The notes: generated from the letters alone by a model not told the origin. Counted from the first letter of the stretch, positions 16,646-46,002 are shown. The stretch is DNA of 64,000 nt from Candidatus Borrarchaeum weybense (GCA_019057385.1 JAHQJS010000007.1:224001-288000); one strand, 5' to 3'. Numbers and translations: made by a program.

Positions 16646-16669
16646 TGTGACTGTTAATCACCAGTCACA
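16646..16669. promoter_or_regulatory. Palindromic operator copy 1 (TGTGACTG TTAATCAC CAGTCACA)
   Basis: Lies between divergent GT4 and PGM genes; followed by TTCATTTAAAA. Confidence 0.8.
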
Positions 16670-16757
16670 TTCATTTAAAATAACATTTTTCGTTTTTAGA
16701 ACTATGTGTGCTAGCAAAATATGTCTAATGATCTTGAAGTTAAATCCTTTTTAATCG

Positions 16758-18197
16758 GTGAGAACTGTGACCACAATCCAATTTGGAACTGATGGTTGGC
16801 GTGCCATTATAGACCGAGATTTCACACTAACTAACGTAAAAATTGTCGCTCAAGCTATAGCAGATTATATGAAGAATCATAATTTAGATGGAAAAGGAAT
16901 TATAGTAGGATACGACACAAGAAAGGGATCGCAACATTTCGCAGAAGGTGTATGCAGGGTAATGCTTGGCAATGCTATCAGTACATTCGTCACTGAAAGA
17001 GATGCACCTACGCCTGTCACAGCTTTTGAGGTCCTCAACGAAAAAGCAGGCGGCGCAGTGATGATTACCGCTTCACATAATCCACCAGAATGGAATGGCA
17101 TTAAATATATTCCAGACTATGCAGGTCCTGCCTTACCTGATATCACTGAAGAAATTACCAAAAACATTGACCAAGTTCTTAAAGCCAAAACAGTAAAGGA
17201 GACTTCTATCGAGAGAGGAACAAAAAGACATCTTTTCAAATCAACTGATCCCAAGATACCGTATACCGAATTCGTTGAAAAACAGATAGATCTTGCAACT
17301 ATGAAGAAGGCAAAATTGAAAGTTGTTATTGACCCAATGCACGGAACCGCCAGAGGCTACCTAGATTACATCTTGCGCGATTTAGGATGCGAGATCACGA
17401 TAATTCATGATGACCTTGATCCTACTTTTGGAGGCGCACGCCCAGAACCTCTTCCAGAGTTTCTCGTCAGCCTAAAGAGTAAAGTTGTCAGTCTTAAAGC
17501 TGATTTAGGTTTAGCAACGGATGGTGATGCTGATCGATTGGCTGTCTTTGACAGTGATGGTACTTATTTAGCAGCAAATCAACTACTACCTCTTTTATAT
17601 GACTATCTCATCAAGATAGGCAAGAGAGGAGGAGTCGTTCGCAGTGTATCCACAACCCATTTCGTCGATCAAATCGCCAAAAAGCATGGTTTTCCTGTTT
17701 ATGAGGTGCCTGTTGGATTCAAGTATGTAGGACAATATTTACGTGAACAGGATGTTATTATTGGTGCGGAAGAAAGTGGTGGCTTTAGTTTTAAGGGACA
17801 CATATCTGAAAAAGATGGTATTTTTACATGCATTAAAGTAGCGGAAATGAGGGCTAAACTTAGAAAACCTCTCTCACAATTGCTTGACGAAATGCAATCT
17901 GAATATGGATCATTTTATAGTGGAAGAACTGAAATCCAATGTCAAGAAAAGCAAAAACAAGTTGTTATGGAAAGATTATCTTCAACTATTCCTGACAAGA
18001 TTATTGGGATAGCGGTGTCGATGGTGAATCGAATAGATGGGTTAAAGTTAATCTTGGAAGATGGAGGATGGTTGCTCATCCGACCTTCAGGAACTGAATC
18101 CATTCTTAGAATCTATGGAGAAACTAGCACTAAAGAGACTTTAAAAATGCTGCTGAAAGCTGGTAAGAGTCTCGTTTCTAAAGCGCTAAATGAATAA
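16758..18197 (+). CDS. Phosphoglucomutase/phosphomannomutase
   Basis: FGTDGWR, TASHNP, DGDADR, GAEESGG, RPSGTE. Confidence 0.95.
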   Translation: MRTVTTIQFGTDGWRAIIDRDFTLTNVKIVAQAIADYMKNHNLDGKGIIVGYDTRKGSQHFAEGVCRVMLGNAISTFVTERDAPTPVTAFEVLNEKAGGAVMITASHNPPEWNGIKYIPDYAGPALPDITEEITKNIDQVLKAKTVKETSIERGTKRHLFKSTDPKIPYTEFVEKQIDLATMKKAKLKVVIDPMHGTARGYLDYILRDLGCEITIIHDDLDPTFGGARPEPLPEFLVSLKSKVVSLKADLGLATDGDADRLAVFDSDGTYLAANQLLPLLYDYLIKIGKRGGVVRSVSTTHFVDQIAKKHGFPVYEVPVGFKYVGQYLREQDVIIGAEESGGFSFKGHISEKDGIFTCIKVAEMRAKLRKPLSQLLDEMQSEYGSFYSGRTEIQCQEKQKQVVMERLSSTIPDKIIGIAVSMVNRIDGLKLILEDGGWLLIRPSGTESILRIYGETSTKETLKMLLKAGKSLVSKALNE

Positions 18198-18518
18198 GCC
18201 TTGGCTCAAATTTGACAACTTGATGAAATCTCAGATTCATTAACTAATTTTCCTTAAGAATAGAGCTACACTCTGCAAAATAAGTAATTCTCTCGTTAAC
18301 AAATTTATAAAAAATCCTTTAAGGAAATTCTACGACAAGAAAGACTAACTAAAAAAAGTAGAGGGTGTATAAAAGAATTTGAAAGTTGATTTGTCTCTTA
18401 TACGCTCTTTCTGATCTCTATTTCAGCGAAGGTTTCTATTCCATTATGTTTTTTCTCAAAATCTTTTTTACCAAACTTTATTAAATCATTTTAGTAGAAA
18501 AGTAAAAGTTCAAAGCAA

Positions 18519-18992
18519 TTATCTACGCAATGTTGATCTTAGTTTATTAGTATCAAGAAACAAGTCTAACGCATACGCTGGGTCAGTAACTAGGATATCT
18601 GCAACATTAATTGTCTTGAACGCTGCACCTTCTCTCCCTATTACAGCAATGCTGATTTTCGCTTCTTCAAGCATTTTGTTATCATTAACGCCATTGCCAA
18701 TAGCTGCGGTATTTTCAACACCTAATTGCAAGATCAGTTCCTTCTTTTCTTCATCTTCTGGTTGTTCTAATTTCAAGTGATAGGTGTCAACTCCTAATTC
18801 TTCTCCTATTTCTTTCAAGTTTCCCCGAGAATCTGACGAAGCAATAATTACTCTGACCTTGTTCTTTAACATCTTTAATTTCGCTTTGACCTCATTACTA
18901 ATCTGCCCTGTCATGGCTAATGTGCCGTTAAGATCGCATATAATTTGTTGAATCATAATTTTTTCCATGCCTGGTATTTCAATTACAATCAT
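18519..18992 (-). CDS. HAD hydrolase (soluble P-type ATPase-like)
   Basis: CDLNGTLA, GNGVND. Confidence 0.85.
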   Translation of the reverse strand: MIVIEIPGMEKIMIQQIICDLNGTLAMTGQISNEVKAKLKMLKNKVRVIIASSDSRGNLKEIGEELGVDTYHLKLEQPEDEEKKELILQLGVENTAAIGNGVNDNKMLEEAKISIAVIGREGAAFKTINVADILVTDPAYALDLFLDTNKLRSTLRR

Positions 18993-19187: not shown

Positions 19188-19211
19188 TGTTACTGTTACA
19201 TAACAGACACA
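19188..19211 (+). promoter_or_regulatory. Palindromic operator copy 2 (TGTTACTG TTACATAA CAGACACA)
   Basis: Intergenic between the HAD gene and htpX; followed by TATAATTAA. Confidence 0.8.
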
Positions 19212-19614
19212 TATAATTAAGAATTTAATTCTGCATTGTCCATTTATACATTTCGAATTACGAAACTAACTGGAAGATGCTATGCAATAGACGCTTTTGA
19301 AAATATAAATGCACTAAATCTATTGAAGGCATATAAAGTGGATACTGATAGTGGGGATTATGAATTAAGAAGGACAATAGTGATCATAATAGTTTTATTA
19401 TTATTTATAGCGTTTGCCTTGGTTCATGGATAATATAAAACACAGAATAACTTAATATTGTCTATTTTATGCGCTAACGCAAATGAAGTGAATGACGTAC
19501 TTCAAAGTTGAGTTACATAATTTTAAATGGAGGATTTGTCAGTAAACGAAACACAAATAATTTTCTATTCTATTTCTGGACATATTTTTTGAGGGTAAAA
19601 TCATTTGAAGGAGC

Positions 19615-21090
19615 ATGGGTTTTATGACACTCACTCAACAAGAATCTGAAAGGCATTTTTTTATTGATACTGAAACTACACCTGGATACTTGCGCCATCT
19701 TCCAGAATTTCTTGAAAATTATTACGTTCTACAACACAAAGAGTTTCGCGCCGTTAAATATATGCGCAAATTTCAAATTGATAAACGATACTATCTTATT
19801 TTTAGGGTATTTGTACCAAAATCATCTGATTATGTTGACGTAACGGTAGAGACTAGTACAGAAGTAGGTCATCCAATTCATGTGATAATGAATCTTAGTC
19901 GGCCCACAATTTCCTATACGTTTTTACAAAGAATTTATGATGACCTTCTCATTAATGTCCAATTCTTCGAAGAATATGCCAGACAATTCACGCTTTATTT
20001 AGCATTTATTCCAGGGCAAAAAGTTACAGAAGAACGATATGGGCGGAACATCTTTCAGAAGTTATTTACCGATTCGATGGTTAATATATTCATATTTTTT
20101 ATCCCCATTGCTTTTATAGCATTTGCACTGCTTGGCCCATTAATCGCCCCAATCGTTATCGTAGCGGCAGAATTAGTTATAATTGCATTTGCTGGAAAAT
20201 TAATCGCAGTAACTTCAGATTGGAAAATTACGAAAGATCGCCCTGAAGTTACAATACTTGAATATACCTTGACGGAAGAGGAAGCGATTATTTTAAGAAA
20301 AAGACACAAAAAAGCACTTCCTAAAATTAGAAAGGAAATTTATGACAAAACGTTAGCAGTAGGCGAGCCAATAAGTTGTGAGGTCGCTCACGACGTTTTC
20401 CAGAAATACGAAATAGAGTGTACTCCCGCATATTTCTCTATCAAGACGATAAATCTATATAATCTTGTCAACTCTGCGGCAAAAAAGTTCAATTTATCAA
20501 TTCCAACGATAGTCGTAAGTAATGTATTAGCAGCTAATGCGGCAGCTACTGGTCTTAATTCAAGAATTGGGACTATGTTAGTAACTACGGGCGCTTTAGT
20601 CCAATTAGAAGAGGATGACCTTCTTCAGGTTGTTGGTCACGAATTAAGCCACCTTAAGGGGCACGATCCAGTCATTATATTTTTACTTGTGTCTCTAGAA
20701 TATTTGGGACGGATATATATAGTAACGTTCATTCCACAACTCGCAAATGTAATTCAGAGTTTGTCCTTGCTTTACTATATCGTGCTTATTGGAACGATCT
20801 TTTTTGTGGGCAAATTTTTTGAGGCAAAGTGCGATTTAGAAAGTGCAATATACTTGAAAGATCCAAAACTTTTGGCAAATGCTTTGAGAAAAATAGGATT
20901 TAGGCAGTTGGTTCATAAGGGGAGAGTCTCGTTTTCTCTATTGGGCTGGCTTCGATTAGATCCTCATCCACCGATTGGTTGGCGCATTAGACGATTGGAT
21001 GAGATTGAGGATCCTAGTCGGATAAAGCATCCCTTCCTAAAATCAGCCTTTGACTGTATAAAGGGATTTTTCTCATCATTTATCCCATAA
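19615..21090 (+). CDS. M48 (HtpX-like) membrane zinc metalloprotease with N-terminal extension
   Basis: ANAAATG, GHELSH, EAKCD, HPPIGWRI. Confidence 0.88.
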   Translation: MGFMTLTQQESERHFFIDTETTPGYLRHLPEFLENYYVLQHKEFRAVKYMRKFQIDKRYYLIFRVFVPKSSDYVDVTVETSTEVGHPIHVIMNLSRPTISYTFLQRIYDDLLINVQFFEEYARQFTLYLAFIPGQKVTEERYGRNIFQKLFTDSMVNIFIFFIPIAFIAFALLGPLIAPIVIVAAELVIIAFAGKLIAVTSDWKITKDRPEVTILEYTLTEEEAIILRKRHKKALPKIRKEIYDKTLAVGEPISCEVAHDVFQKYEIECTPAYFSIKTINLYNLVNSAAKKFNLSIPTIVVSNVLAANAAATGLNSRIGTMLVTTGALVQLEEDDLLQVVGHELSHLKGHDPVIIFLLVSLEYLGRIYIVTFIPQLANVIQSLSLLYYIVLIGTIFFVGKFFEAKCDLESAIYLKDPKLLANALRKIGFRQLVHKGRVSFSLLGWLRLDPHPPIGWRIRRLDEIEDPSRIKHPFLKSAFDCIKGFFSSFIP

Positions 21091-21158
21091 TTTTTGGCAA
21101 GTAAAAGCCTTATATTTACTTACTTTAACGCTATTCAGACTCTGGGTGGATAGACCGG

Positions 21159-21186
21159 TGTTAATAGTTGTTAATAGTTGTTAATA
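21159..21186. repeat. Short tandem repeat (TGTTAATAGT)x2.8
   Basis: Directly visible upstream of the histidine phosphatase gene. Confidence 0.7.
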
Positions 21187-21220
21187 TCTGTCTATAATGA
21201 AAGGAACGGTCGGATTATAG

Positions 21221-21763
21221 ATGAAAACTGAAAAAGCAAACAATTCAAAATTAACAAGACTTTTGCTCATCCGTCATGGAAAAACAGAGGAAAACTGGCA
21301 AGGAGAGTATCGCTTACCACCTGGTCCTCCTCTCTCGCTTGAAGGACGAACACAAATAATCGCTCTCAAAAACAAACTAATGAAGTTTCCGGCTGATAAA
21401 ATATATGTTTCTCCGTACAAGAGGACAGAAGAAACTGCGGAATTACTAACAAATAAATTCAGTAAAATAATCGTAGATGAACGATTAGATGAAAAAACAT
21501 ATGATAAGAGTTTTGAGAAAGTAAAAAAAAGAGTTTCTAAATGGCTTAAAGAACATATAAAATACGATAGAAGCACAATTTGGGCAGTATCACACGGTTT
21601 CCCGATTAATGCGATAATTCTGTTGGTTTCCCCGAGTGATTTCGAAGGAAAGAGCACAGAAGATGAACATTCACATGTTCCTAGAGGTGGCGTGTGGATC
21701 ATGGAATGGGAGGACAAGACACTCACCAGAAGCGAGTTGTTAATAGGAAAAGAATACGTCTGA
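21221..21763 (+). CDS. Histidine phosphatase family protein
   Basis: IRHGKT, SPYKRTEETA, VSHG. Confidence 0.88.
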   Translation: MKTEKANNSKLTRLLLIRHGKTEENWQGEYRLPPGPPLSLEGRTQIIALKNKLMKFPADKIYVSPYKRTEETAELLTNKFSKIIVDERLDEKTYDKSFEKVKKRVSKWLKEHIKYDRSTIWAVSHGFPINAIILLVSPSDFEGKSTEDEHSHVPRGGVWIMEWEDKTLTRSELLIGKEYV

Positions 21764-21946: not shown

Positions 21947-23479
21947 TTATCCAAGAAGATTACTTGCAGCACGTAGAGTAAAGTCTATAAATGGGCCTGG
22001 GTATACTCCCAGAATAACAATAAAGATGGCAAAAAGGACAATAACAAGCTTCATTAGCCCACTATTCTTAAAATTCATATTGTCGAAGCCTTGAACATAT
22101 TTTTCCTCCATAGTTGATTTATCCATGACAATAAATTTAATGATCCATAGGTAACCGGCTGCTGCAAAAAAAGTAAATACTAGCATACTCCAACCAGCAA
22201 TTATGCCGATGGGACTGCCATTTTCGAACAGACCTAGGATAATTTGCAATTCTGACCAGAAACCACCGGTGAAAGGTATCGCAGCTAGTGAAAAAAGACC
22301 AATCACCAAGCATGATCCAATAACTGGGTCTCGTCTTCCAAGTCCTTTGTAGTGATCAAGGGAGTGCGAACCCGTTGAAAAAATGAGATATCCGGCAATC
22401 ATAAACAACAAACTTTTTGCAATAGCATGGTTGAGGGCATGTAATAGGACCCCGCTTAACCCCATAATATTTGCAGCACCAAGGCCTGTGATAAGGTAGC
22501 CCATATGTGTGATCGTGGAAAATGCTAAAATGCGTTTGAAATTTCGTGCGTGTGAATCTGATCTCTTGAATTGGATGAGAACAAAAAGATTTCCTTGTAA
22601 TGAGGTAATAATGCCAACAGACATCAATAGATTGCCCCAGCTACCGCCAATACTGATGTTTAACGGAATGATAAGTAGTGTAAATGTTCTTAATATACCA
22701 TACGTCCCTGCAATGACAACAACTCCTGATAGCATCGCGCTTGCAGGTGCAGGTGCGGCCGGATGAGCATCCGGAAGCCAAGTATTAAGGAAAAACATTG
22801 ACCCAGTGACACCAAATCCTACGATCATCAAAATGAGTGTCACTGAGGTCATAGGATTATTTTGCAGGGTTGCTGTTTCAAAATAAACAAAATCTAGCCT
22901 ACTGGTTGCTCCATACAGTAGAGCTAATCCAAAAAGAATTAACATGTTCCCCGTTGAGCTCATCACTAAGTACTTAAACCCTGCTTCTGACGATTCTTTG
23001 CTACGATAATAACTAACCATACTATAACTACCTAGAACCATTCCTTCATATGCGATAAACAAGGTGAAAAAATCAACTGCCAATACTACCAGATTAAGAC
23101 CGGTTATTACTGCAAACAACAAAGCATAGAAATATGCTAAGTCTTCATAGGCATCCATAAAATTTATGCAATAAATGTTAACCGCAAAATGGATCAATGT
23201 AAAGATTAGTATAAAAAAGAGAGAGGTCATATCTGCCTGTAAGACAAGGAAAGACGTCTCTTTAAAGAATTTTTCTCCTGTTGTTAAAATTGAAGTGCTA
23301 AACAGAATGGCTAATGAAATATTAATTGATGCTCCAATAAACGCAATGGCGTGTACTAACTTTTTTTTCAACCAGGAAGTCTTTAGTAGTCTTTCTATGA
23401 ACATAAGAAGAAAAGAGCTTAGAAGAGGGACAAAAACGAAGGAGAGCAATGATATATTAAACCCTATAATTTCAATCAT
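21947..23479 (-). CDS. Antiporter-like subunit NuoM/N / MrpD-type
   Basis: EAGFKY, WLPDAHPAAPAPASAMLSG, KRILAFS. Start placed at ATG 23479. Confidence 0.9.
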   Translation of the reverse strand: MIEIIGFNISLLSFVFVPLLSSFLLMFIERLLKTSWLKKKLVHAIAFIGASINISLAILFSTSILTTGEKFFKETSFLVLQADMTSLFFILIFTLIHFAVNIYCINFMDAYEDLAYFYALLFAVITGLNLVVLAVDFFTLFIAYEGMVLGSYSMVSYYRSKESSEAGFKYLVMSSTGNMLILFGLALLYGATSRLDFVYFETATLQNNPMTSVTLILMIVGFGVTGSMFFLNTWLPDAHPAAPAPASAMLSGVVVIAGTYGILRTFTLLIIPLNISIGGSWGNLLMSVGIITSLQGNLFVLIQFKRSDSHARNFKRILAFSTITHMGYLITGLGAANIMGLSGVLLHALNHAIAKSLLFMIAGYLIFSTGSHSLDHYKGLGRRDPVIGSCLVIGLFSLAAIPFTGGFWSELQIILGLFENGSPIGIIAGWSMLVFTFFAAAGYLWIIKFIVMDKSTMEEKYVQGFDNMNFKNSGLMKLVIVLFAIFIVILGVYPGPFIDFTLRAASNLLG

Positions 23480-23490
23480 AATATTATCAC

Positions 23491-25449
23491 CTAAAAGAGT
23501 AGAAGAACAATAAGAATTGCAAGAAGAACCACAACTATTCCCACTGTATTGTAGTTGAGATCGCCAGATTGTAATTTGCGTAATTTCCAATTGAATCTCA
23601 TGAATAAGTCCAGTAACTCGTTGTAAAGCACATCTAAGTAAAATCCTTCTTCAGCGATATTATAAAAAGCGCTAAGAACCCAATATTTCCGTACTGTTGG
23701 CATGATGGTTCTAGGGCCTTTATAGTAGATGAGATAACTAATGGTAAATCCAACAGCTACTAGCGAGATTGCCAGAATCATGTTGAAAAATGCCATTGGC
23801 TGGTGTACGAGATCGGGTATATATCTCAGTGGGTTATGATATGCCACATGCTCGAACATAGGTTCGAAATAGTTATTTAGGAGAATTGGTCCAAGAAACC
23901 CAGTTGCTATGACAAGGATTGCTAAAGAACTTGTAACTCCTCGCATTATTGGCCCTGGCTTGTAGATTTTCAATTTTTCTGGCTTTTCGCCATAAAAAAT
24001 CAAGAAAAAAAACCTAAACGCGTATATAGCTGTTAAAGGCGCGGTTATTATACCAGCGCCATAGACTATCCAACCAAGGGAAGCTAGTCTCGCACCACTA
24101 GAAGCGTAATTAATTGCGCTACCTAATATTGCCTCTTTGCTATATCCACCGTTAAAGAGGAAAGGAACACCCGCTAAGGCACATACTCCTATTAATGTTG
24201 ACCAGTGAAGAACTGGCAAGTCATTTTTTAATCCACCCATATGTTTGATGTTCCGTTCATCGTGCAGAGAATGAATGATTGCTCCAGCCGATAGAAAGAG
24301 GAGTGCTTTGAAGAGACCATGAGACAATAAATGAAACTGAGTGGCCATAAAACCTTCAATACTAATGGCTTGGTTCTCATAATACGCTAAATAACCAACT
24401 GCAAGTCCCATGAACATATAAGCAATTTGACTAACTGTTGAATATGCCAATACTCGTTTGATATCAATAGAGACCAAGGCGGAGGCGGCACTAATGATAG
24501 CGGTAATAGCGGCTATGAAGGCAATGGTAATGAAAAAAGGTTCCACCTCAGTTGGACCAAAGACGTTGTAAAATCGTGATAGGAGATATACTCCAGCTTT
24601 TACCATCGTAGCTGCATGTATAAGTGCACTAACCGTTGTAGGCCCCTGCATTGCATCAATATTAATTCGACGAGGGCTACTTAACCAAGTAATGAGAGGA
24701 AATTGAGCAGATTTACTAATAGCGCCGAGCAAAATGAATAGCGCAACAAGTGTTTGAAGATCTGGTGATACGTTGGTAGCAAATTCTACCGTAATTATTT
24801 TTATATTTATCGTGTTTAATTCTAGCCAGAGGATTCCAAGCGCAATTAGAAGAGCGATATCGCCAACAAATGTCATGAGAAATGCTTTTATTCCAGATTT
24901 GGCGCATAGTGTACCTTGTGGGTCAGGTTTATGGAACCAATGTGCAATCAGGAAATAAGAACAAACTCCCATTATTTTCCAGCCGAAAAAGAGGATTACA
25001 AGATCTCCTGCAAGAACAAAAAGAACCATTCCGCCTACGAAAAGTTGTAGGAAGAAATAATATCGACCTTGTGCATCATCATCCTTCATGTATTCTAAGG
25101 AAAATAGGGCAATTAAAAAACCCAAACCAGCTGCAATGAGTGCGACAAAGGCCCCCAAAGGATCGACCATGATGGAATTGTTGAAGAACCCATGGATGTT
25201 ATAATTAAATACCGTAGGGTTTAATAGAATTACCTGTTCTTCCCAATTCCCCGCAAAAACAAGGTAACTTGCAAGAAGTGCTGAAATACCAATCGTAGCA
25301 ACCGAAAAATAGTTTCTTATCTCTGTACTAAATTTTCCAATAATTGCAGAAATGACCGCTCCGAGAATGGGAATAGCAAATATTGAAAACCAAGGCTGAA
25401 GAAACAGAAGAAAGACGCTTTGCAATGTGTTTATATGCCAACTTGCCAT
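23491..25449 (-). CDS. Antiporter-like subunit NuoL / MrpA-type
   Basis: KSAQFPL, AMQGPTTVSALIHAATMVKAG, KRVLAYST, HGLFKALLF; long C-terminal tail. Confidence 0.92.
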   Translation of the reverse strand: MASWHINTLQSVFLLFLQPWFSIFAIPILGAVISAIIGKFSTEIRNYFSVATIGISALLASYLVFAGNWEEQVILLNPTVFNYNIHGFFNNSIMVDPLGAFVALIAAGLGFLIALFSLEYMKDDDAQGRYYFFLQLFVGGMVLFVLAGDLVILFFGWKIMGVCSYFLIAHWFHKPDPQGTLCAKSGIKAFLMTFVGDIALLIALGILWLELNTINIKIITVEFATNVSPDLQTLVALFILLGAISKSAQFPLITWLSSPRRINIDAMQGPTTVSALIHAATMVKAGVYLLSRFYNVFGPTEVEPFFITIAFIAAITAIISAASALVSIDIKRVLAYSTVSQIAYMFMGLAVGYLAYYENQAISIEGFMATQFHLLSHGLFKALLFLSAGAIIHSLHDERNIKHMGGLKNDLPVLHWSTLIGVCALAGVPFLFNGGYSKEAILGSAINYASSGARLASLGWIVYGAGIITAPLTAIYAFRFFFLIFYGEKPEKLKIYKPGPIMRGVTSSLAILVIATGFLGPILLNNYFEPMFEHVAYHNPLRYIPDLVHQPMAFFNMILAISLVAVGFTISYLIYYKGPRTIMPTVRKYWVLSAFYNIAEEGFYLDVLYNELLDLFMRFNWKLRKLQSGDLNYNTVGIVVVLLAILIVLLLF

Positions 25450-25460
25450 TTTTAGACACC

Positions 25461-25793
25461 TCAGCCTTTGAGTGTTGTAAGATCGTCAATTTCAGTGGTC
25501 TGAAAATGTTCGTACACTTTTCGTATAAAGGCTAATGCAAGTCCCACGACTGCAGCACCGACTGATAGTGTAATCAGGACAAATGTCTGTGTTTGTGGAT
25601 CCACATTTACACCTTGAGTGAATCCAAATGCAATGAACACAATATTGGGTGCACTGACGAGCATTTCTAATGCCATGATTACTCTGATCGTTGATCGTTT
25701 AGTAGTTAGGCCATAAAACCCCATTAATAGCATAATAAAAGATAATGCAAGTAAAACTTCAAAATCCGTGAAAGAATCGAAAGTAATGCTCAT
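25461..25793 (-). CDS. NuoK / MrpC-like subunit
   Basis: 110 aa, 3 TM, MALEML, AAVVGLAL. Confidence 0.85.
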   Translation of the reverse strand: MSITFDSFTDFEVLLALSFIMLLMGFYGLTTKRSTIRVIMALEMLVSAPNIVFIAFGFTQGVNVDPQTQTFVLITLSVGAAVVGLALAFIRKVYEHFQTTEIDDLTTLKG

Positions 25794-26352: not shown

Positions 26353-26373
26353 ACAATCATCTCCTTTGCGGGT

Positions 26374-26808: not shown

Positions 26809-26810
26809 AT

Positions 26811-27959: not shown

Positions 27960-27966
27960 TCTCAGT

Positions 27967-30242: not shown

Positions 30243-30267
30243 TTTTTAACACCTCTTATTGATCAAA

Positions 30268-33773: not shown

Positions 33774-33901
33774 CACGTTTAATAATCAAAGCTTCTGCAA
33801 AATACGGATAAGTTAATTATGATACGTAATTAACACAAAATTTCACCTAAATAACAAGAACTTGATCTTTTTACCAGAAAAGAAATAGAGGATTTAATAT
33901 T

Positions 33902-37555: not shown

Positions 37556-37579
37556 TGTTACTGTTAGTTAACAGTCACA
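37556..37579 (+). promoter_or_regulatory. Palindromic operator copy 6 (TGTTACTG TTAGTTAA CAGTCACA)
   Basis: Between divergent TrmB and DUF1116 genes; followed by TAGATATAAG. Confidence 0.85.
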
Positions 37580-37682
37580 TAGATATAAGATTTGATATTC
37601 ATCATTAATATCTTTGAAATGTGAGTGACTTGAAACCCTAGAAAAACAGAAGGTAGATACTATTAAGGAATGGAACACAATT

Positions 37683-38945
37683 TTGAGGCGTATTTCAAGT
37701 CAAAAAAATATTCGAGATGAGATTTACGCGGCTAACTCAAAAGCTCTAGAGATACTAGATAACGGTAAGGCCACGTTAGTGGACTTTGACATGGCAAAAA
37801 AGGTTATACCTAACATGAATGATGACATTATTCTTCATTCAGGTCCGCCGATCGATTACAAAGATATGATTGCACCGATGAAGGTAGCTATACAAGGCGG
37901 CCTTATCTTCGAAGGAAAGACAAAAACTTTGAAAGATGCAGATAAAATCGCATCAAGCGGGGAGATAATGTTTAAACCTTGCCATGAATATGCAAGCGTC
38001 GGGTCCATGGCAGGTATAATAACTCCTTCTATGTATGTCGCAGTCGTGGAGAATTCTGAATATGGAAATAAAGCATTTTGCAATCTTCACGAAGGCCTTG
38101 GAACAAATTTAAGATTTGGAGGATATAATGAAGAAGTGATTGGACAGTTTTACTGGATGTTTGATGTCCTTGGCCCCTCACTGAAGAAGGTGGTTAAGAA
38201 GATGCCGATAGATTTGATTTCCATAATCAGCCAAGGGTTACTGATGGGAGATGAGTTCCACCTAAGATCTAATGCATCAAATATGTTATTCTTGAAGAGC
38301 ATAATAGATTATCTGTGGGATACTGATGATGGCACGGCAATTGTTAAGTTTATTAATGATAACGAACAGTTCTTCCTGAACCTTGCAATGTCTGCAAATA
38401 AAGTGCTGGCAGATGCTGCAGATGGAATAGAATGCAGCACACTTGTGACGAGAATGACGGGAAATGGTACCGACTTTGGCATAGGAGTGAGCGGATTGGA
38501 GGGACAGTGGTTCATCGGTCCTGTAGAAGTGCCTAATGATATGTACTTTAATGGATATAATCAACTAGACGCTGTTGGAGATTTTGGTGATAATTCTATT
38601 ACGGAGACGCTCGGACTTGGTGGTTATGCATTAGAGGCTGCTCCTAACGTGATAAGGCGTATTGGAAAAAATATGAAAGAAGCCGTGCGTATGACCCTTG
38701 ATGGCTATAAGGTGTGTGATGGTGTCAACAGTCAATTCTTTATACCATACCTCAAATTCGAAGGCACCCCTTTGGGCATAAACATCATCAAAGTCAATAA
38801 AACCGGTCTTGTTCCGAAATCAACTATAGAAATCGTCCATAAAAAAGCTGGTATCGGGCAAATAGGCACCGGAATCTCTTGTGCTCCCATTAAAGCCTTT
38901 AGAGACGCATTAAAAGCCTTCGCAATGAAATACGGGATATACTAA
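37683..38945 (+). CDS. DUF1116 (YahG/YlbE-like) protein
   Basis: LHSGPP, VGSMAGI, MGDEFH, ITETLGLGG, HKKAGIGQIG. Confidence 0.85.
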   Translation: MRRISSQKNIRDEIYAANSKALEILDNGKATLVDFDMAKKVIPNMNDDIILHSGPPIDYKDMIAPMKVAIQGGLIFEGKTKTLKDADKIASSGEIMFKPCHEYASVGSMAGIITPSMYVAVVENSEYGNKAFCNLHEGLGTNLRFGGYNEEVIGQFYWMFDVLGPSLKKVVKKMPIDLISIISQGLLMGDEFHLRSNASNMLFLKSIIDYLWDTDDGTAIVKFINDNEQFFLNLAMSANKVLADAADGIECSTLVTRMTGNGTDFGIGVSGLEGQWFIGPVEVPNDMYFNGYNQLDAVGDFGDNSITETLGLGGYALEAAPNVIRRIGKNMKEAVRMTLDGYKVCDGVNSQFFIPYLKFEGTPLGINIIKVNKTGLVPKSTIEIVHKKAGIGQIGTGISCAPIKAFRDALKAFAMKYGIY

Positions 38946-39069: not shown

Positions 39070-39093
39070 TGTTACTGTTGTCTAACAGTCACA
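39070..39093 (+). promoter_or_regulatory. Palindromic operator copy 7 (TGTTACTG TTGTCTAA CAGTCACA)
   Basis: Upstream of the 39152 ORF; followed by CACGTTTAATAAT, identical to copy 5. Confidence 0.85.
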
Positions 39094-39151
39094 CACGTTT
39101 AATAATTAATTCTAGTTTTCTTTTGTTACGGAAAAAAGATGGATAAAAAAG

Positions 39152-39733
39152 ATGGATAAAATGACAAAAAATCGGAAAAAAATACGGCGAGAGATTACCG
39201 CAGTTGGCATCATATTCTTAAGCTTTGGACTAATCTTGGTAGCAGTGGGAATGCGCCCAACCTTTAAAATTGTTAAAAATACTGAAACACTACTTTACGT
39301 TACAGATTACCCACTTTCAGAGAATTACGTCTATTTTGATACAACATTGAAACCAGGAGATATGGCCTCGGGAACAATTAAAACTTCGAATCCTGTAAAC
39401 TTCTATATCTTCGACAGTGATCAGTATAACAATTGGCAAACGATTTATTCTTACTCTCCAAATGCGCCTTCGATTTTCACAAGAACCCATTCCAACAATA
39501 TCGCATTTAGCGTCCAAATTTCGTATGAGGATACTTATTATTTAGTTGTTCACAACTACTATAGTTATTCAGGCTGCGTGATAAGATCTATGTATGTAGA
39601 GAGGACATATTTTACAAGGATAGAGCATTTTGATTATTCACTATCAATAGCTGGTTTGCTCACGGTGTTGACTGGTCTTATTATTGCTGCAATTGGATTA
39701 TCGACGCGCGTAAAAGTTGAAAACAAAGTTTAA
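39152..39733 (+). CDS. Membrane protein with extracellular beta-sandwich (GOLD/PPC-like)
   Basis: N- and C-terminal TM helices; PVNFYIFD...TYYLVVHN beta pattern. Confidence 0.65.
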   Translation: MDKMTKNRKKIRREITAVGIIFLSFGLILVAVGMRPTFKIVKNTETLLYVTDYPLSENYVYFDTTLKPGDMASGTIKTSNPVNFYIFDSDQYNNWQTIYSYSPNAPSIFTRTHSNNIAFSVQISYEDTYYLVVHNYYSYSGCVIRSMYVERTYFTRIEHFDYSLSIAGLLTVLTGLIIAAIGLSTRVKVENKV

Positions 39734-40315: not shown

Positions 40316-40339
40316 TGTGACTGTATTTTAACAGTCACA
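40316..40339 (+). promoter_or_regulatory. Palindromic operator copy 8 (TGTGACTG TATTTTAA CAGTCACA)
   Basis: Upstream of the CydA-like operon; followed by AACCTTTTATAG. Confidence 0.85.
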
Positions 40340-40375
40340 AACCTTTTATAGATAGCTTCCTCATACGTAAGCTTC

Positions 40376-42061
40376 ATGTCTACTATTAAATCACTTTTGG
40401 AAATGAAAAAAATCCTGATACTAGTGCTAGCCTTAGCAGTATACATCGTTATTCTAGTCTTTGTTATAGTGCCGTTGCAAGGTGGATTAATTCCTTCTTC
40501 TGTGATAAGAAGTGAAGACTTTCAAAACGCAGATCCTCAATATAGAGAAACACTACCTATACAAACAGTTGACTTAAGCTCTTCAGGACGTTCTATTTTC
40601 ATTGCAGTAGTCATGCTTTCCCATGTTCTTTACGCTAACTTACACCTTGGAGGTTCATGGGTAGCCATCGTTACAGCATCTCTTTATCTCAAAACAAAGG
40701 ATAAACGTTACGAGAACCTCGCAAAATCCCTCACCCTATTCAATGTAATCTTATTTAGCGCTGGTGCTACCTTTGCGATAGCAGGAGTGCTTTTCTTTAT
40801 ATCTTTATATCCAGTATTTGCCGCGCAGTTATTTCATATCTATTGGTGGCCCTTTTTTGTTGAAGCAATAACCTTCGCTTTGGAGATCTTCTTTCTATAT
40901 TCATTTTGGTTTACTTGGGGTAAAATCAACGTCAAATGGCATCAATTTTTAGGCTATGGTTATGCGATTGATGTTTTTATTCAGACATTTCTTATCAATA
41001 TGGTCGCTAGTGGAATGCTGACCCCAGGTGGCGCTTCGATCGTCTATAGCCAAACTGGACTTATGACTATTCCAATAAGCGAGGCGTGGGCATGGTGGCT
41101 CAATCCAACCACTTTACGACTCCAACTTCATCGATTAGCTGCCGCAGTTTCCTATTTTGGCTTTCTAGTGGCAATGTTGGGTACACTCCACTATGGCGAT
41201 CGGAAAGATGAAATCTCGAAAAAACACTGGGACTGGGTTACATCCTATGGGTTAGCGTGGGGCTTGCTCGGATTAGTTTTTCAACCAGCACTGGGACTAA
41301 TCTACATGATGGCCATCAGCGATGCACAGGACTCCGCCTTTCAGATGATCATGCATGGCCCGCGTGCCTGGGAAATGTTACTAATGGTTGCATTGTTTTC
41401 TGCCCTTGTCATTTCATCGCTTATTTACTTTTATGATCGCCGGGAGCGAATACTTACGAAAGTTGAAACACGCACATGGCATACATTATTCAAAATCTGC
41501 TTAATTGCTGCAGTAATATGTGCAATAATTCTTGTTCAACCTGCTTGGCTGGGAGCCACCTTCATTGACGATCCTAACGCTTGGGAGAACCCCTTAGGAA
41601 GCATGGACTTCAAATATCCTACACTATTTACTTTGATCATACTTGGAGTAATTGTTCTGACTATAGATACAGCCATATTGTCCGATCTACATGAAGCTGA
41701 GTGGGGACATCCGTCTAAAACTGCACGAACGGCAGCAATGCTTTCAGGAATATTTGCCTCATGGATTGTAGTAGTAATGGGGTATGTGCGTGAATCCGCT
41801 CGCTCACCGTGGACAATATATAACATAATCCCAGTGCCTCATTCATATCCAGACTATCCAACACCCATTCCTTTGCCGCAAATTTTCGTCGTTTGGGCCG
41901 TTGTTATATTTCTCGCGCTGACAGTCTTTTGGTACACCTCTAAGGTCACAGCGTATCACCCTGAGGAAGCTGAAAAGATAATTCCAAGACTTACAAAGAA
42001 AGAACGGAAGAAAATCGAAGAAAAATTTCCACCACCCCTGGAGGCAGTCGAGGAGACATAA
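40376..42061 (+). CDS. Cytochrome bd subunit I (CydA)-like protein, non-canonical
   Basis: SHV (heme His), E..FALEIFFLY..W, MLTP, LHRLAAA; GYVRESARSPW replaces GRQPW. No CydB next to it. Confidence 0.8.
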   Translation: MSTIKSLLEMKKILILVLALAVYIVILVFVIVPLQGGLIPSSVIRSEDFQNADPQYRETLPIQTVDLSSSGRSIFIAVVMLSHVLYANLHLGGSWVAIVTASLYLKTKDKRYENLAKSLTLFNVILFSAGATFAIAGVLFFISLYPVFAAQLFHIYWWPFFVEAITFALEIFFLYSFWFTWGKINVKWHQFLGYGYAIDVFIQTFLINMVASGMLTPGGASIVYSQTGLMTIPISEAWAWWLNPTTLRLQLHRLAAAVSYFGFLVAMLGTLHYGDRKDEISKKHWDWVTSYGLAWGLLGLVFQPALGLIYMMAISDAQDSAFQMIMHGPRAWEMLLMVALFSALVISSLIYFYDRRERILTKVETRTWHTLFKICLIAAVICAIILVQPAWLGATFIDDPNAWENPLGSMDFKYPTLFTLIILGVIVLTIDTAILSDLHEAEWGHPSKTARTAAMLSGIFASWIVVVMGYVRESARSPWTIYNIIPVPHSYPDYPTPIPLPQIFVVWAVVIFLALTVFWYTSKVTAYHPEEAEKIIPRLTKKERKKIEEKFPPPLEAVEET

Positions 42062-42747
42062 TGATATCTGATGTAAAAGTGACTGAGGAACAGATCTTTG
42101 TATATCTAGGGACTCAGACATTAAAATTCCCCAGATTGCATTTGCCAGAGGTTTTTTTGCACTGGCAGGCTGAAGCAAGGCTAAAGATGTTTGATATATT
42201 AGAAAATAAGGGCGCGGATGTCATAAAGACGCATCCCGCCCATCTTCCTGTTTTTGCTACACTGGGAACCAGTTCATTTCCAATCAACCTGACTGCTAAA
42301 GGGATAGGTCTCTTGCCGAAGCTAAAATATCTTGAAGAATTTACAACTCTTTTCAAGGACACCCAAGCCAATGCCGATGGGCAGTCATGGCACGATACGC
42401 TTTCACTAAGAGTGGAGGCTGTTAGAACCTTTTATAGTAATCTAGAGAATTTTGACCGCGGGATATTGGGCGGACTGGAGATTTTTGAAGGTCGTACGAC
42501 CCAAAATTTAAAAAACTATCCGCTGGCGTCGATTTTATATATCGGAGAAGCTCCCAAGTTCCCAAGTTACCAGTTCAATGGAGTGGTCGTTTTTGTAGAT
42601 TCTGAAAATCCATATTTTCGCTTTTTAAGAGCTGCTCGTGAATTATTCGCTTTTGATTCGTTTCATATTCCCCAAATTCGTTATCCTTATGGATTTCTCT
42701 TTCATGTGGTAGAAATTCTAGACAAAACTCCGTTTCCGAGGCGATAA
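42061..42747 (+). CDS. Hypothetical protein, possibly PNPOx-like split barrel
   Basis: Coupled to the CydA-like gene; TTQNLKNYPLASILY...SYQFNG pattern. Confidence 0.55.
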   Translation: MISDVKVTEEQIFVYLGTQTLKFPRLHLPEVFLHWQAEARLKMFDILENKGADVIKTHPAHLPVFATLGTSSFPINLTAKGIGLLPKLKYLEEFTTLFKDTQANADGQSWHDTLSLRVEAVRTFYSNLENFDRGILGGLEIFEGRTTQNLKNYPLASILYIGEAPKFPSYQFNGVVVFVDSENPYFRFLRAARELFAFDSFHIPQIRYPYGFLFHVVEILDKTPFPRR

Positions 42748-42748
42748 A

Positions 42749-44176
42749 ATGTATAAGCGTATCCTTGTGGCCCTAGATGGCTCAATATGTTCAAATATTG
42801 CTTTAAAAACAGCGCTAGCACTTGCTGAACGAGGAAATCAAACACATCTCATCGGCTGTCATGTCTACGCCGCTCGCATGCATCGAACTCGCTTTGAGGA
42901 AATGGAGCCTGGGTTGCCAGAGTCTTATCAGGAAGAAGAACGTTTAAATTACCTACGCCATGCTCACGATGATATTATTGGAACAGGGATGAAACTCATC
43001 TCCGATGCATACTTAGCCCCTCTGATCCAGAAAGCCGAAGAAAAAGGATTGACTTACGAAGGCGTAACTCCTGAAGGACGCAACTATGTGGAACTTCTTC
43101 GCGTAATACAAGAGCATAATGCCGATCTTGTTGTGATGGGAGCCTGGGGACATGGACATGTTCCAGAGGGACTCATAGGAAGCTTAACCGAGCGCATCTT
43201 ATTTCTAGCCCCCAATAGTGATATATTAGTAATGAAAAAATCTTTGAATTTCGAAAAGTACCCTATTGTGGTAGGAATTGATGGGAGTGAAAACAGTTAT
43301 GCAGCCATGAAAAAAGCAGTTTCTATCGCTCGTGCATTTGGTTCTAATGTGGAAGCTGTGGCGGTCTATGATCCTTTCTTTCATACAGGGGTCTTTCAGA
43401 CGATCACTGAAGCCTTACCAGATGAAGCAAGGCAACGCTTCAATTTTGCTGCTCAGGAAAGGCTTCATGATGAAATCATAGATCAAGGGCTAGAGAATCT
43501 TTATCGAGAGGGGTTGGAACGAAGTGTCTTAATGGCACAATCAATGGGAATAGAAGTCCACCCAAATGTATTAGCAGGAAAGGTATATTCTCAACTTTAT
43601 CATTACGCTACACTAAGGGGAGCAGGGTTGATAGTGATGGGACGGTGGGGATTGCATCGAGAAAAAGATTCGATTATCGGATCCAATACTTTGAATATTA
43701 CCAGATTGAGCACTACAAATGTGTTGGTGGTGACTCCTCCAACGGAACCATTAGAGGTGCCTAAACTTTCCCAAGAAGCGCAGAATGTCGCATTACCTTG
43801 GACGCCAGAAGCGGAACTTATGATGGAACGCGTTCCAATTTTTGCGCGCGAAATGGCACGTCGAGTAATTGAGGATCAAGCTCGGGAAAGAGATCTTTCA
43901 GAGGTCACTCCTGATATAGTTCAAGAAATTGCTCAACGCTTAGGAATGAAAAAGGGACGACACGACAAAGAAGTGGCTGATGCTCCAGAAGCTCAAATGG
44001 TGAGTTTCCGCAAGATCAAAAGACTTGCTCCCGACTTTCATCGCCATATTCTTCGTAGCAAATTAATAGGACAAACGGTGCGGACAGGTGAGCGTATCTT
44101 GGTCTATGAAGTTCTAGAGACGGATCCGCCGGGTCTGGTTAGGGTTACGGAAAAAACCCGTCTGGAGTTTCGATGA
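42749..44176 (+). CDS. Tandem universal stress protein with PCP_red-like and CDC48-domain-2-like C-terminal domains
   Basis: Two USP domains (ILVALDGS; IVVGIDGS; G..G...GS), WTPEAELMMERVPIFAREMARRVIE, and a C-terminal beta domain. Confidence 0.85.
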   Translation: MYKRILVALDGSICSNIALKTALALAERGNQTHLIGCHVYAARMHRTRFEEMEPGLPESYQEEERLNYLRHAHDDIIGTGMKLISDAYLAPLIQKAEEKGLTYEGVTPEGRNYVELLRVIQEHNADLVVMGAWGHGHVPEGLIGSLTERILFLAPNSDILVMKKSLNFEKYPIVVGIDGSENSYAAMKKAVSIARAFGSNVEAVAVYDPFFHTGVFQTITEALPDEARQRFNFAAQERLHDEIIDQGLENLYREGLERSVLMAQSMGIEVHPNVLAGKVYSQLYHYATLRGAGLIVMGRWGLHREKDSIIGSNTLNITRLSTTNVLVVTPPTEPLEVPKLSQEAQNVALPWTPEAELMMERVPIFAREMARRVIEDQARERDLSEVTPDIVQEIAQRLGMKKGRHDKEVADAPEAQMVSFRKIKRLAPDFHRHILRSKLIGQTVRTGERILVYEVLETDPPGLVRVTEKTRLEFR

Positions 44177-45129
44177 TGGTAGAAACGCAAGCGACCGTGA
44201 TCATAGAAGAAGTATGGAAATATTACGGAAAAATTAAGGCTCTTGAAAATGTTAACTTGAGAATTCAGAAGGGTGAGATCTTCTTTCTGCTGGGACCGAA
44301 TGGTTCTGGGAAGTCTACTTTGCTCAGAATATTGAGCACTATCTTCTCTCCTGATAAGGGTCGATTTTCTCTCTTTGGTCTTGATGGGATAAGAGACCGG
44401 ACAGTCATCCGCAAACAGATAGGAATTCTTTCAGAGCATAGTAGTCACTGGGATAGACTTACTGGTTATGAAAATGCTTGGTTTTTTGCTAGTTATTACA
44501 ATATCCCTCAAAAAATGATAAAAAATCGTTTAAACGATCTTTTTCGTAGGTTTGGGCTATGGGAAAAACGAAATGATGCAGTTGTCACCTATTCTTATGG
44601 AATGCGACGCAAACTATCTATTATAGAGGCTTTTGTTCATCAACCAAAGCTTTTATTGCTTGATGAGCCCTCCATGGGCCTCGATTACGTTTCCAGATTG
44701 AAGTTGTTTGATCTTATGGAACAGGAAGCACTTAAAGGAACAACAATAATTGTAGCCACAAATGATGTAAATGAAGCATCCCAAATGGCTAAAAGGGTTG
44801 CTCTTCTCCGACAAGGAACAGTAGTGATTACAGACGAACCAATGGAATTAGTTAAATCGCTGAAAGCTCTAACTCGGATAACACTTTGGGTAGCTTCCCC
44901 CATTCCTTTAACTTCACTTCAGGCTATTAATGGAGTAGAAGGGGTAGCAGCAAATAAGGAAGCAGAAAATAGCTTTCAAATAGTTTTCCTCGTACGCGAT
45001 GGACGTAAAATCCTGCCACATATTGTAAATGAAGTAGTGAAAGAGAATGGAGCAATTTTAGGTATGGATGTGAATGAGCCGAACCTAGGTGATGTCTTTC
45101 TTAAACTAACCAGAGAGGAGATCCACTAA
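44173..45129 (+). CDS. ABC transporter ATP-binding protein (DrrA-like)
   Basis: GPNGSGKS, YSYGMRR, LLLDEP. Confidence 0.93.
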   Translation: MMVETQATVIIEEVWKYYGKIKALENVNLRIQKGEIFFLLGPNGSGKSTLLRILSTIFSPDKGRFSLFGLDGIRDRTVIRKQIGILSEHSSHWDRLTGYENAWFFASYYNIPQKMIKNRLNDLFRRFGLWEKRNDAVVTYSYGMRRKLSIIEAFVHQPKLLLLDEPSMGLDYVSRLKLFDLMEQEALKGTTIIVATNDVNEASQMAKRVALLRQGTVVITDEPMELVKSLKALTRITLWVASPIPLTSLQAINGVEGVAANKEAENSFQIVFLVRDGRKILPHIVNEVVKENGAILGMDVNEPNLGDVFLKLTREEIH

Positions 45130-45824
45130 TGCTCCCAAGTCGTTATTGGCAAAAGGAATTCTTAGAAGAGATAAAAAGTAAAAGAACTCTAACGATGAAA
45201 TTTCTACTGCCACTGCTTCTCCTGAGTCCTCTTGCCATATTTTCGATTCCTTACAATATTAAAGCGGGAGGTTTTACTGCGGCAGTGCTTTTCATAGGAG
45301 TGTTCGGTTCGGCGGTAAAATTAGTACGCCTAAGAGAGAACAGAATGTTAGAACGACTAGCAGTGCTTCCTATACCTTCTGCATATATAGTTTGTGAATA
45401 TATTTTAATCAATTCATTTTTCGACGGTCTTCAACTTCTTGCCCCATTATTAATAATCTATGGACTTGAGCATTCCCAGCCGATTGCCTTATTATGGATT
45501 TTCGCCTGCTATATCGCTGCTCTTTTAACCGCTAATGCTTTAGGTGTATTAGTTACTCTAATATCGGGTACTTCAGGAGAAGTACACCTTTTTGCATTTC
45601 TGACTGTTTTGGTGGTGGGAGGACTTTCAGGTCTATTTATGATACTTTTACCCAGCCCGTTGAGGGAGATTGGATTTATAATGCCTTTCCGGCATTTATT
45701 CGATGCCTTGCTCTATGGATGGGGATTTTCTCTACCTCAAGTTCCATTTCTTGGGCCGCTTATGGGAATAGCGTGGCTAGTTGGAACTTTAACTCTTTCT
45801 TCACGTCTATTCCGCTTTAAATAG
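45129..45824 (+). CDS. ABC-2 type permease
   Basis: About 6 TM, RENRMLERLAVLP; coupled to the ATPase gene. Confidence 0.85.
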   Translation: MLPSRYWQKEFLEEIKSKRTLTMKFLLPLLLLSPLAIFSIPYNIKAGGFTAAVLFIGVFGSAVKLVRLRENRMLERLAVLPIPSAYIVCEYILINSFFDGLQLLAPLLIIYGLEHSQPIALLWIFACYIAALLTANALGVLVTLISGTSGEVHLFAFLTVLVVGGLSGLFMILLPSPLREIGFIMPFRHLFDALLYGWGFSLPQVPFLGPLMGIAWLVGTLTLSSRLFRFK

Positions 45825-45978
45825 ACTAAAAACGGGATTTACTTGTCAACTAAGTTATAAATCACACAGGATCAACAGTGAAATGGACAGCATAGTATTG
45901 ATGATGATATAAAAATGATGATTTTTATTTTTCAGTCAATATATAAGCGCGTCAATTACTTTTGAGATAGATCTACGT

Positions 45979-46002
45979 TGTTACTGTTAGATAACACACA
46001 CA
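45979..46002 (+). promoter_or_regulatory. Palindromic operator copy 9 (TGTTACTG TTAGATAA CACACACA)
   Basis: Upstream of the zinc-finger gene; followed by CATTCATATAAA. Confidence 0.75.

Follow-up and report, generated by a model that had tools for sequence, protein, structure and literature searches.

Why would a genome carry nine nearly identical 24-bp palindromes within a single 29-kb island, and which protein reads them? The question is raised by a window of 64,000 nucleotides (nt) from the Asgard archaeon Candidatus Borrarchaeum weybense (genome G000, positions 224001-288000 of contig C7 in an assembly of 4,178,934 bases), in which the palindromes precede genes for sugar-phosphate metabolism, a hydrogenase and a proton pump and flank a gene for a TrmB-family regulator. 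Asgard archaea and Bathyarchaeia are abundant uncultured sediment lineages whose gene regulation is, to our knowledge, almost unexplored. The reading that we favor, with a probability of about 0.62, is that a dimer of the TrmB-family protein encoded at 36559-37440 docks at the nine palindromes, each fused to a TATA-like box, and so controls a regulon private to this island, in which activation of the genes on the TATA side is the likelier sign and a redox or stress signal is likelier than a sugar.

Palindromes in register with a TATA-like box

Allowing up to 3 mismatches, a search for TGTKACTGN8CAGTMACA in the window gave 11 matches against 0.54 expected, a number that none of 100 shuffles (0/100) got to. 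The nine sites reported in an earlier note on this DNA are all present, all intergenic and within 0-2 mismatches of the consensus. A position matrix derived from these nine and applied to the whole 4.18 Mb assembly gives them 31.3-37.0 bits. The next best position in the genome, C3:37347, reaches 18.6 bits and lies inside an open reading frame (ORF) of 185 amino acids (aa). Given this large gap in score and the intragenic runner-up, the motif is confined to positions 16646-46002 of the window, or 29.4 kb of 4.18 Mb, in agreement with the note, which had noticed no site outside 16.6-46 kb.

Four further candidates were discarded. Positions 27482 and 28921 are weak matches that both lie inside hydrogenase genes, and the conservation of C3:37347 in congeners is accounted for by the ORF that contains it. 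The last candidate, at C5:174833, is a different hairpin located behind a TATA box. This distinct palindrome (TGTTAGTGTTTCCTGACACTAACT, C5:174833-174856) stands ~12 nt past a TTTAAAAAG box downstream of a 341-aa ORF, is retained in four congeneric genomes (G000, G002, G003 and G004), and possibly forms a small RNA's 5' hairpin.

Read toward the gene, the nine sites have the form TGTKACTGTT-N4-AACAGTCACA with small deviations, followed by a 4-nt spacer and an 8-nt TATA-like box (9/9). The box is always on the side of the regulated gene and the spacer is always exactly 4 nt, while the distance from the end of the palindrome to the start codon ranges from 36 to 403 nt. The promoter-proximal end of the palindrome is CACA in every case; at the distal end, six sites have TGTT and three have TGTG.

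We compared four congeneric genomes, G002, G003 and G004 among them, and found the motif at orthologous promoters in two (G002 and G004); in 26 genomes of the phylum that represent 22 other genera, it was not found at ≤1 mismatch. When the spacers orthologous among G000, G002 and G004 are aligned, the palindrome and its TATA-like box stand out as a conserved island amid substitutions and large indels, which is the pattern expected from purifying selection on a cis-element. Numbering the operators 1 to 9 along the window, G002 keeps its sites before the hydrogenase, fructose-bisphosphate aldolase (FBA), AllG and 193-aa genes (the orthologues of operators 3 and 7 being at C258:1873 and C109:674), operators 4 and 6 are conserved in both G002 and G004, operator 1 is conserved in G004 inside an indel-rich spacer, and the G004 orthologue of operator 9 is at C89:30408. 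The G004 island is compact, in the order GlgP, GT4, [site], PGM, HisPhos, 102-aa gene, [site], ATPase, TrmB, [site], AllG, C2H2, [site], with only four strong sites over 10.6 kb, and no close hydrogenase orthologue was found in that genome.

Beyond the genus, the supposition that the element is peculiar to this organism did not hold. Motif-only scans of public metagenome contigs and of one genome per prokaryotic species returned at least 120 loci each (240 motif loci are listed, and the counts of loci given below refer to the matches listed). They showed a composite element, TGTTACTGT-N6-ACAGTCACA-YANN-YTTAAAA, that is common in Bathyarchaeia and also occurs in a few other Asgard metagenome-assembled genomes (MAGs); TGTTGCTGT is an example of a motif variant. 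Among the 120 genome loci listed, ~85 belong to Bathyarchaeia, 8 to Asgard archaea (Borrarchaeum, four Promethearchaeota MAGs, two Thorarchaeota and one Hermodarchaeota) and ~21 to scattered bacteria. The inner TT/AA of the Borrarchaeum sites is not conserved in Bathyarchaeia sites. The register is fixed elsewhere too: across 168 unique oriented sites from other organisms, position 30 is T in 144/168 and position 32 is A in 146/168, and the second base of the spacer, which is outside the palindrome, is A in 123/168. An in-register TATA-like box was found at 74% of the metagenome-locus sites, 82% of the non-Asgard archaeal genome-locus sites and 8/8 Asgard sites, as against 24% of bacterial matches and 4.1% of random positions. 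The element is also directional, its GTCACA end facing the TATA-like box in 77 cases, with the box solely on the other side in 3, and the reverse orientation gives the mirror-image result. Complete Bathyarchaeia chromosomes carry 2-13 dispersed sites each, with none for a reversed control pattern. Set beside the one cluster in Borrarchaeum, this indicates a dispersed regulon in Bathyarchaeia and a single-island regulon here.

The TrmB-family protein as candidate reader

The motif-only scans repeatedly brought up homologues of the window TrmB (~31-53% identity). At 18 of the loci listed, no more than about 60 nt separate the TATA-distal edge of the site from the start of a TrmB homologue. At 8 more, including Thorarchaeota, Hermodarchaeota and Promethearchaeota MAGs, a 460-484-aa TrmB lies ~300 nt away and is convergent to a gene for an 81-87-aa MarR-like protein that the site heads. 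Never, among the matches listed, is a TrmB homologue the first gene on the TATA side. Conversely, four of the five complete Bathyarchaeia genomes have a site 24-41 nt upstream of the matched N-terminal end of a TrmB-MEDS-type gene.

These homologues form one subfamily with one recognition helix, [VI]RRE[DE]VYR (VRREDVYR in the window TrmB), in which R59, R60, E61, Y64 and R65 are invariant in 23 subfamily sequences; paralogues carry VPxxK[IV]Y. With a hidden Markov model (HMM) made from 20 site-adjacent TrmBs, the window TrmB scores 260 bits and the other ORFs of the genome at most 75, the best runner-up being a MEDS-only ORF; the window TrmB is the sole member of the subfamily in this genome. 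From these linkages and sequence comparisons we consider the window TrmB a well-supported candidate binder of the palindromes, and the note's choice of this protein as the likely regulator, with a site in its own divergent promoter, remains the best one.

The site-linked subfamily is a clade with 98/96 support. Within it, the Borrarchaeum trio has a long branch and groups with the Bathyarchaeia "adjacent" clade as its sister (92/84), apart from the other Asgard members, and this grouping hints at a transfer of the Borrarchaeum TrmB from Bathyarchaeia. The TrmB proteins P0003-P0005 are 81-97% identical to the window TrmB, and the nearest named TrmB is from a "Promethearchaeota archaeon".

The protein itself (293 aa) consists of a wHTH (winged helix-turn-helix) domain, a predicted long coiled-coil helix and a PLD-like domain, the first and the last of which Pfam finds. 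The TrmB wHTH profile PF01978 matches residues 25-91 at 56.2 bits (cut-off 25.6), and an AlphaFold model with a predicted local distance difference test (pLDDT) score of 79 gives the wHTH at high pLDDT and a single helix over residues 91-123. Foldseek matches the full-length fold of this model to TrmBL2 (E 4e-15, ~21% identity) and to TrmB (4e-10), and the window protein aligns end to end with TrmBL2 (264 aa). The sugar-binding profile PF11495 (Regulator_TrmB) stays below its cut-off (19.8 bits versus 22.2) and covers only profile positions 13-130 of 233. With the NCBIfam models for TrmB, TrmBL1 and halo-TrmB, whose cut-offs are 500-650 bits, the protein reaches 24-32 bits, and the TrmBL2 orthology model (NF041141) scores 30 bits against 530, so that agreement with TrmBL2 is one of fold and architecture only. 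Judged by its sequence and predicted structure, the window TrmB has the TrmBL2 architecture and lacks the sugar-binding subdomain. It has a single cysteine, at position 224.

The Bathyarchaeia and other Asgard relatives are longer (460-484 aa) and end in a MEDS domain (PF14417, an inactive KaiC-like domain), which Pfam did not detect in the window TrmB. A stand-alone MEDS-like ORF of 215 aa, which scores 76.7 bits with the MEDS portion of the Bathyarchaeia TrmB-MEDS proteins, is present ~350 kb downstream on the same contig (C7:637528-638175), with no motif site nearby; the window TrmB might have in it a sensor partner encoded separately. In Thor-, Hermod- and Promethearchaeota MAGs (L168, L183, L217, L247, L157 and L235), and also at L079, L104, L187 and L253, we observed a two-gene module in which TrmB-MEDS is convergent with a MarR-like wHTH gene behind one palindrome-TATA element, short loci showing the small-gene half only. 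In other Asgard archaea, this module seems to represent the system at its most reduced.

Sign and signal of the proposed regulation

With the TATA-like box centred near -26, the palindrome would occupy roughly positions -58 to -35, with the CACA end at the expected position of the TFB-recognition element (BRE). We propose that a TrmB dimer docks on each palindrome and that the palindrome, held in its 4-nt register to the upstream edge of the TATA box, acts as a composite operator-promoter module on which the bound regulator would help or gate the recruitment of TBP and TFB. The invariant register, the conserved base in the spacer and the direction-dependent outer base of the half-site together suggest a contact between the regulator and TFB or TBP. 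For genes on the TATA side, activation would be the likelier sign. TATA-distal genes (trmB in Bathyarchaeia and GT4 here) would probably be repressed, since their start codons lie 20-30 nt from the distal edge, where a bound factor would cover the start region. The operator that the note had described is retained as a cis-regulatory element, and its place directly upstream of the TATA box in a fixed 4-nt register suggests activation more than repression of the classical operator kind.

The strongest alternative, which we hold to be possible though clearly the less probable, is that TrmB acts as a repressor at all nine promoters, where the TATA-proximal half-site would lie over the BRE and block TFB until a stress or metabolic signal releases it. 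The palindrome does end 4 nt from the TATA box with its last bases at the expected BRE, stress regulons are often de-repressed, and the TrmB of Pyrococcus and Thermococcus represses the TM operon from a site at the BRE/TATA (PMC4158304). On the other hand, characterized TrmB-family factors activate from sites upstream of the BRE/TATA and repress from sites at or after the start, with TrmBL1/Tgr and Halobacterium TrmB as activating examples (PMC4158304), and the motif of OxsR upstream of the BRE/TATA likewise goes with activation (PMC9426492). A register invariant across two phyla also suits contact with the basal machinery better than plain occlusion, and the A at the second spacer position is conserved as if a second factor read the junction. 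We would put activation of the TATA-side genes at roughly twice as likely as BRE occlusion.

Several points weigh against activation by a docked TrmB. The overlap of the proximal half-site with the expected BRE makes the geometry equally compatible with TFB occlusion, and hence repression. Upstream of 1546 long ORFs in this AT-rich DNA, neither a positional TATA peak nor a BRE signal emerged from which a BRE/TATA consensus could be drawn. The ATG of the window trmB is ~124 nt from operator 6, compared with 20-30 nt in Bathyarchaeia, which makes its autoregulation less obvious. Co-occurrence across relatives is not independent, and adjacency could mean that another factor co-regulates trmB. Finally, the relative closest to it among solved structures, TrmBL2, is a chromatin protein that is for the most part non-specific.

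Such another factor is the subject of a second alternative, which we judge improbable: that TrmB is a mere member of the regulon and that the sites are read by the C2H2 zinc-finger protein (46064-46432), by a regulator encoded elsewhere or by a specialized TFB or TBP paralogue whose promoters would require a longer upstream element. The zinc-finger gene does have a site in both G000 and G004, and the commonest first genes behind the element in Bathyarchaeia encode small regulators (HTH_45, MarR-like proteins of 81-87 aa and the Lrp/AsnC type). Yet the 240 motif loci listed contain no zinc-finger homologue, HTH_45 has no match in this genome, and the MarR-like homologues are encoded elsewhere in the genome, with no site of ≥10 bits outside the window in the matrix scan of the assembly (the 18.6-bit pseudo-site being intragenic). 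With the other regulators absent or unlinked, the TrmB subfamily is the only DNA-binding protein that is common to every motif-bearing lineage and physically linked to the element, and the 2-fold symmetry of a 24-bp site fits a dimer of wHTH proteins. Very improbable is a third idea, that the palindrome is no operator but the end of a small mobile element or promoter cassette that multiplied locally, or else an RNA hairpin, for instance one for termination or processing, as the tight clustering in one island, the extra bases shared by copies 5 and 7 past the palindrome (CACGTTTAATAAT) and a possible 10-bp hairpin might suggest, since orthologous promoters are occupied in three species while their flanks diverge with indels, no common sequence was found beyond palindrome and TATA box among the copies compared, the element is upstream of the TATA box and hence outside the downstream transcript, it is present in divergent intergenic regions where no gene ends, and it is dispersed over whole Bathyarchaeia chromosomes.

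Returning to activation by a TrmB dimer, the signal would more likely be redox, oxygen or general stress than sugar, by analogy with the gene sets of the relatives, and a sugar is the less likely because the window TrmB has no sugar-binding subdomain. Across 150 non-redundant loci outside the genus, among the matches listed, the first genes on the TATA side encode HTH_45 regulators (12), fasciclin (8), ferritin/rubrerythrin (6), multicopper oxidases (6), Lrp/AsnC-type ligand domains (6), HSP20 (5), pyridine-nucleotide disulphide oxidoreductases (4), Fe/Mn superoxide dismutase (SOD; 4), heliorhodopsin (3) and AhpD-like CMD proteins (3), besides others. Judged from sequence, the Bathyarchaeia set looks like an oxygen and oxidative-stress program, perhaps related to light as well. 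The heliorhodopsin genes (PF18761, E 4e-94) stand directly behind the palindrome-TATA module at L077:6630-7460 and at two more Bathyarchaeia-like loci.

The overlap of these genes with those of the window is small; the window M48 protein is 42% identical to the second gene product of a motif-headed operon at metagenome locus L144. Within the window, a stress reading agrees with the CydA-like/Usp/ABC operon, both proteases (M48 and M50) and the proton pump, and an energy and carbon reading with the glycogen, FBA and hydrogenase genes. Of the regulon that the note had proposed, the local set of cis-regulatory operators stands; its sugar-sensing carbon and energy interpretation finds no support in the TrmBL2 architecture or in the oxygen and oxidative-stress type genes in Bathyarchaeia. 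We also offer a wider scenario, tentatively and as something we would not expect to hold in full: a cross-phylum response system to oxygen, oxidative stress and possibly light, consisting of the palindrome-TATA element and a TrmB(-MEDS) reader, which would drive SOD, ferritin, rubrerythrin, multicopper oxidase, HSP20 and heliorhodopsin genes in Bathyarchaeia and be kept as a minimal pair of TrmB-MEDS and a small wHTH gene in other Asgard archaea, and of which Borrarchaeum took a Bathyarchaeia-type copy, lost the sensor domain and rewired its hydrogenase, proton-pump, glycogen and CydA-like island by successive insertion of module-bearing operons.

By its sequence, the system appears to work like the TrmBL1/Tgr-TGM and Halobacterium TrmB regulons while being outside their orthologous groups. 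The shared features are a TrmB-family wHTH with an inverted-repeat site (TATCAC-N5-GTGATA for TrmBL1/Tgr and TACT-N7-8-GAGTA for Halobacterium TrmB), a multi-operon regulon that includes glycolytic or sugar-phosphate genes, a site upstream of the BRE/TATA with activation, and autoregulation as proposed there (PMC4158304). In contrast to those systems, the site here is ACTGT-N6-ACAGT in a 24-bp palindrome, the protein is non-orthologous and has no sugar-binding subdomain, the TATA register is fixed at 4 nt and the regulon occupies one 29-kb island. As the note had stated of the TGM, SurR and CRP motifs, this motif is unlike those known: the published TrmB operators (TACT-N3-AGTA, TGM, TACT-N7-8-GAGTA) and the CG-rich repeat of OxsR differ in half-site and spacing, leaving only a loose ACT...AGT likeness at N10 (PMC4158304, PMC9426492).

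TrmBL2 of Thermococcales (PDB 5bpd, 5box and 5bqt) is the best full-length match in structure and sequence, with wHTH, long helix and PLD-like domain and no C-terminal sugar-binding barrel; it differs in being described as an abundant chromatin protein and repressor on coding and intergenic DNA, whereas the gene here is linked to a conserved 24-bp site of high specificity, and identity is ~21%. The resemblance to the thiol-based OxsR of Haloferax volcanii lies in oxidative-stress genes, those for SOD, ferritin, rubrerythrin and AhpD-like proteins being headed by the relatives that the window TrmB has in Bathyarchaeia; OxsR, however, is a single-domain protein with Cys24 and a CG-rich motif, in contrast to the Cys 224, different motif and extra PLD-like domain of the window TrmB and the MEDS domain of its relatives (PMC9426492). 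Ptr2 of M. jannaschii and TFB-RF1 of P. furiosus likewise have a site immediately upstream of the BRE/TATA, with recruitment of TBP or TFB as the proposed action (cited in PMC4158304); their regulator families and motifs are different. The site is immediately upstream of the core promoter in 9/9 window sites and most of the 168 elsewhere, and here, in contrast to those two systems, the register is invariant across phyla and the promoter-proximal outer base is specific to direction.

SurR of Thermococcales (GTT-N3-AAC) has a membrane-bound hydrogenase operon in its regulon, and its GTT...AAC core recurs in the Borrarchaeum sites, but with N4 rather than N3 and with no SurR-type regulator linked to the sites. 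The LexA site is CTGT-N8-ACAG. LexA, Rex, CRP/FNR and SurR were rejected as readers since the spacing differs and no such regulator is linked.

We found no description in the literature of the element, of TrmB-MEDS regulators or of such Bathyarchaeia promoter palindromes. The unusual traits are a near-identical 24-bp site across two phyla, its fixed fusion to TATA and its confinement to a single island. What results is a concrete and testable pair of regulator and DNA site with a sharply bounded gene set, which would permit regulon reconstruction from sequence in hundreds of MAGs and would offer a handle on the oxidant response of strict sediment anaerobes. The fixed 4-nt register would make a clean system for the communication of archaeal factors with TBP and TFB, and the island-private layout in Borrarchaeum illustrates how a regulon may be assembled from promoter modules.

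Operators and genes along the island

The nine modules head ten transcription units within 29 kb, and Pfam and NCBIfam bore out the downstream genes as the note had named them, apart from the 193-aa "membrane protein", which is without a family match. Operator 1 (16646..16681, palindrome 16646-16669, plus strand; 32.9 bits; TATA-like box TTTAAAAT) faces the gene of the phosphoglucomutase (PGM)/phosphomannomutase family (16758..18197, plus strand) and is divergent from the gene for a GT4 glycosyltransferase that is glycogen-synthase-like (15333..16622, minus strand), both identified by Pfam and NCBIfam. It has CACA-type ends on both sides, and the GT4 start codon is 24-27 nt from its other edge. 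Operator 2 (19188..19223, plus strand; ATTAAGAA) is upstream of a 65-aa ORF (19236-19433, plus strand) and of the genes for an M48 (HtpX-like) peptidase and a histidine phosphatase (19615..21763, plus strand; Pfam and NCBIfam). The ORF, which encodes a hydrophobic tail, starts 25 nt past the operator in the 403-nt gap before M48, and the unit may in truth begin with it. Between the PGM gene and operator 2, a 157-aa ORF (18519-18992, minus strand) contains the C-terminal part only of a HAD/P-type-ATPase hydrolase domain and is not in the compact G004 island; it may be a gene remnant.

Operator 3 (30890..30925, palindrome 30902-30925, minus strand), whose TATA-like box, the third in operator order, is TTCAAGAA, heads a complex-I-ordered membrane [NiFe]-hydrogenase-like operon of 11 genes (21947..30645, minus strand) in the order NuoA?-B-CD-H-I-J-J'-K-L-N/M. 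Operator 4 (33581..33616, palindrome 33593-33616, minus strand; TATAAAAT) heads the operon for a class II FBA, an M50 peptidase with CBS domains and a function-unassigned protein of 102 aa (30957..33448, minus strand). Operator 5 (33750..33785, plus strand; TTTAATAA) heads the gene for a type IIIA plasma-membrane proton-efflux P-type ATPase (33902..36358, plus strand; TIGR01647, 1077 bits). Its orthologue in G004, upstream of the P-type ATPase gene (C89, ~23,040-23,070), is degenerate, with several substitutions and a central spacer 1 nt shorter, and the TATA box and downstream leader are retained there despite the degenerate palindrome.

Operator 6 (37556..37591, plus strand; TATAAGAT) faces the gene for an AllG/DUF1116 protein (37683..38945, plus strand; family match), with the gene of the candidate TrmB-family regulator (36559..37440, minus strand; PF01978; probable start ATG 37431) divergent on its TATA-distal side. 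Operator 7 (39070..39105, plus strand), which has the same box as operator 5 (TTTAATAA), heads the 193-aa gene (39152..39733, plus strand; no Pfam or NCBIfam family match). Operator 8 (40316..40351, plus strand; TTTTATAG) heads a five-gene operon (40376..45824, plus strand) for a CydA-like protein, a 228-aa protein, an Usp-Usp-PCP_red fusion, an ABC ATPase and an ABC-2 permease; since the CydA-like ATG is only 36 nt past the palindrome, the transcript of this gene is probably leaderless. With the CydA-like protein as query, the gene was not found in the four congeners, and the operon is missing from the G004 island; it appears to be a recent addition that brought or gained its own operator-TATA module. 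Operator 9 (45979..46014, plus strand; CATATAAA) heads the gene for the C2H2 zinc-finger protein (46064..46432, plus strand; 122 aa, family match).

DNA of the window between 33400 and 43399 is also present in contigs of sediment, mangrove and marsh metagenomes; among the public data sets listed for this interval all were DNA and none was an RNA run, which has no bearing on expression. To the left of operator 1, a gene convergent with GT4 (13478-15250, plus strand) encodes a glycogen-phosphorylase-like protein with an N-terminal YHS (metal-binding) domain, which at 98.8% identity in G004 is the most conserved protein of the neighborhood.

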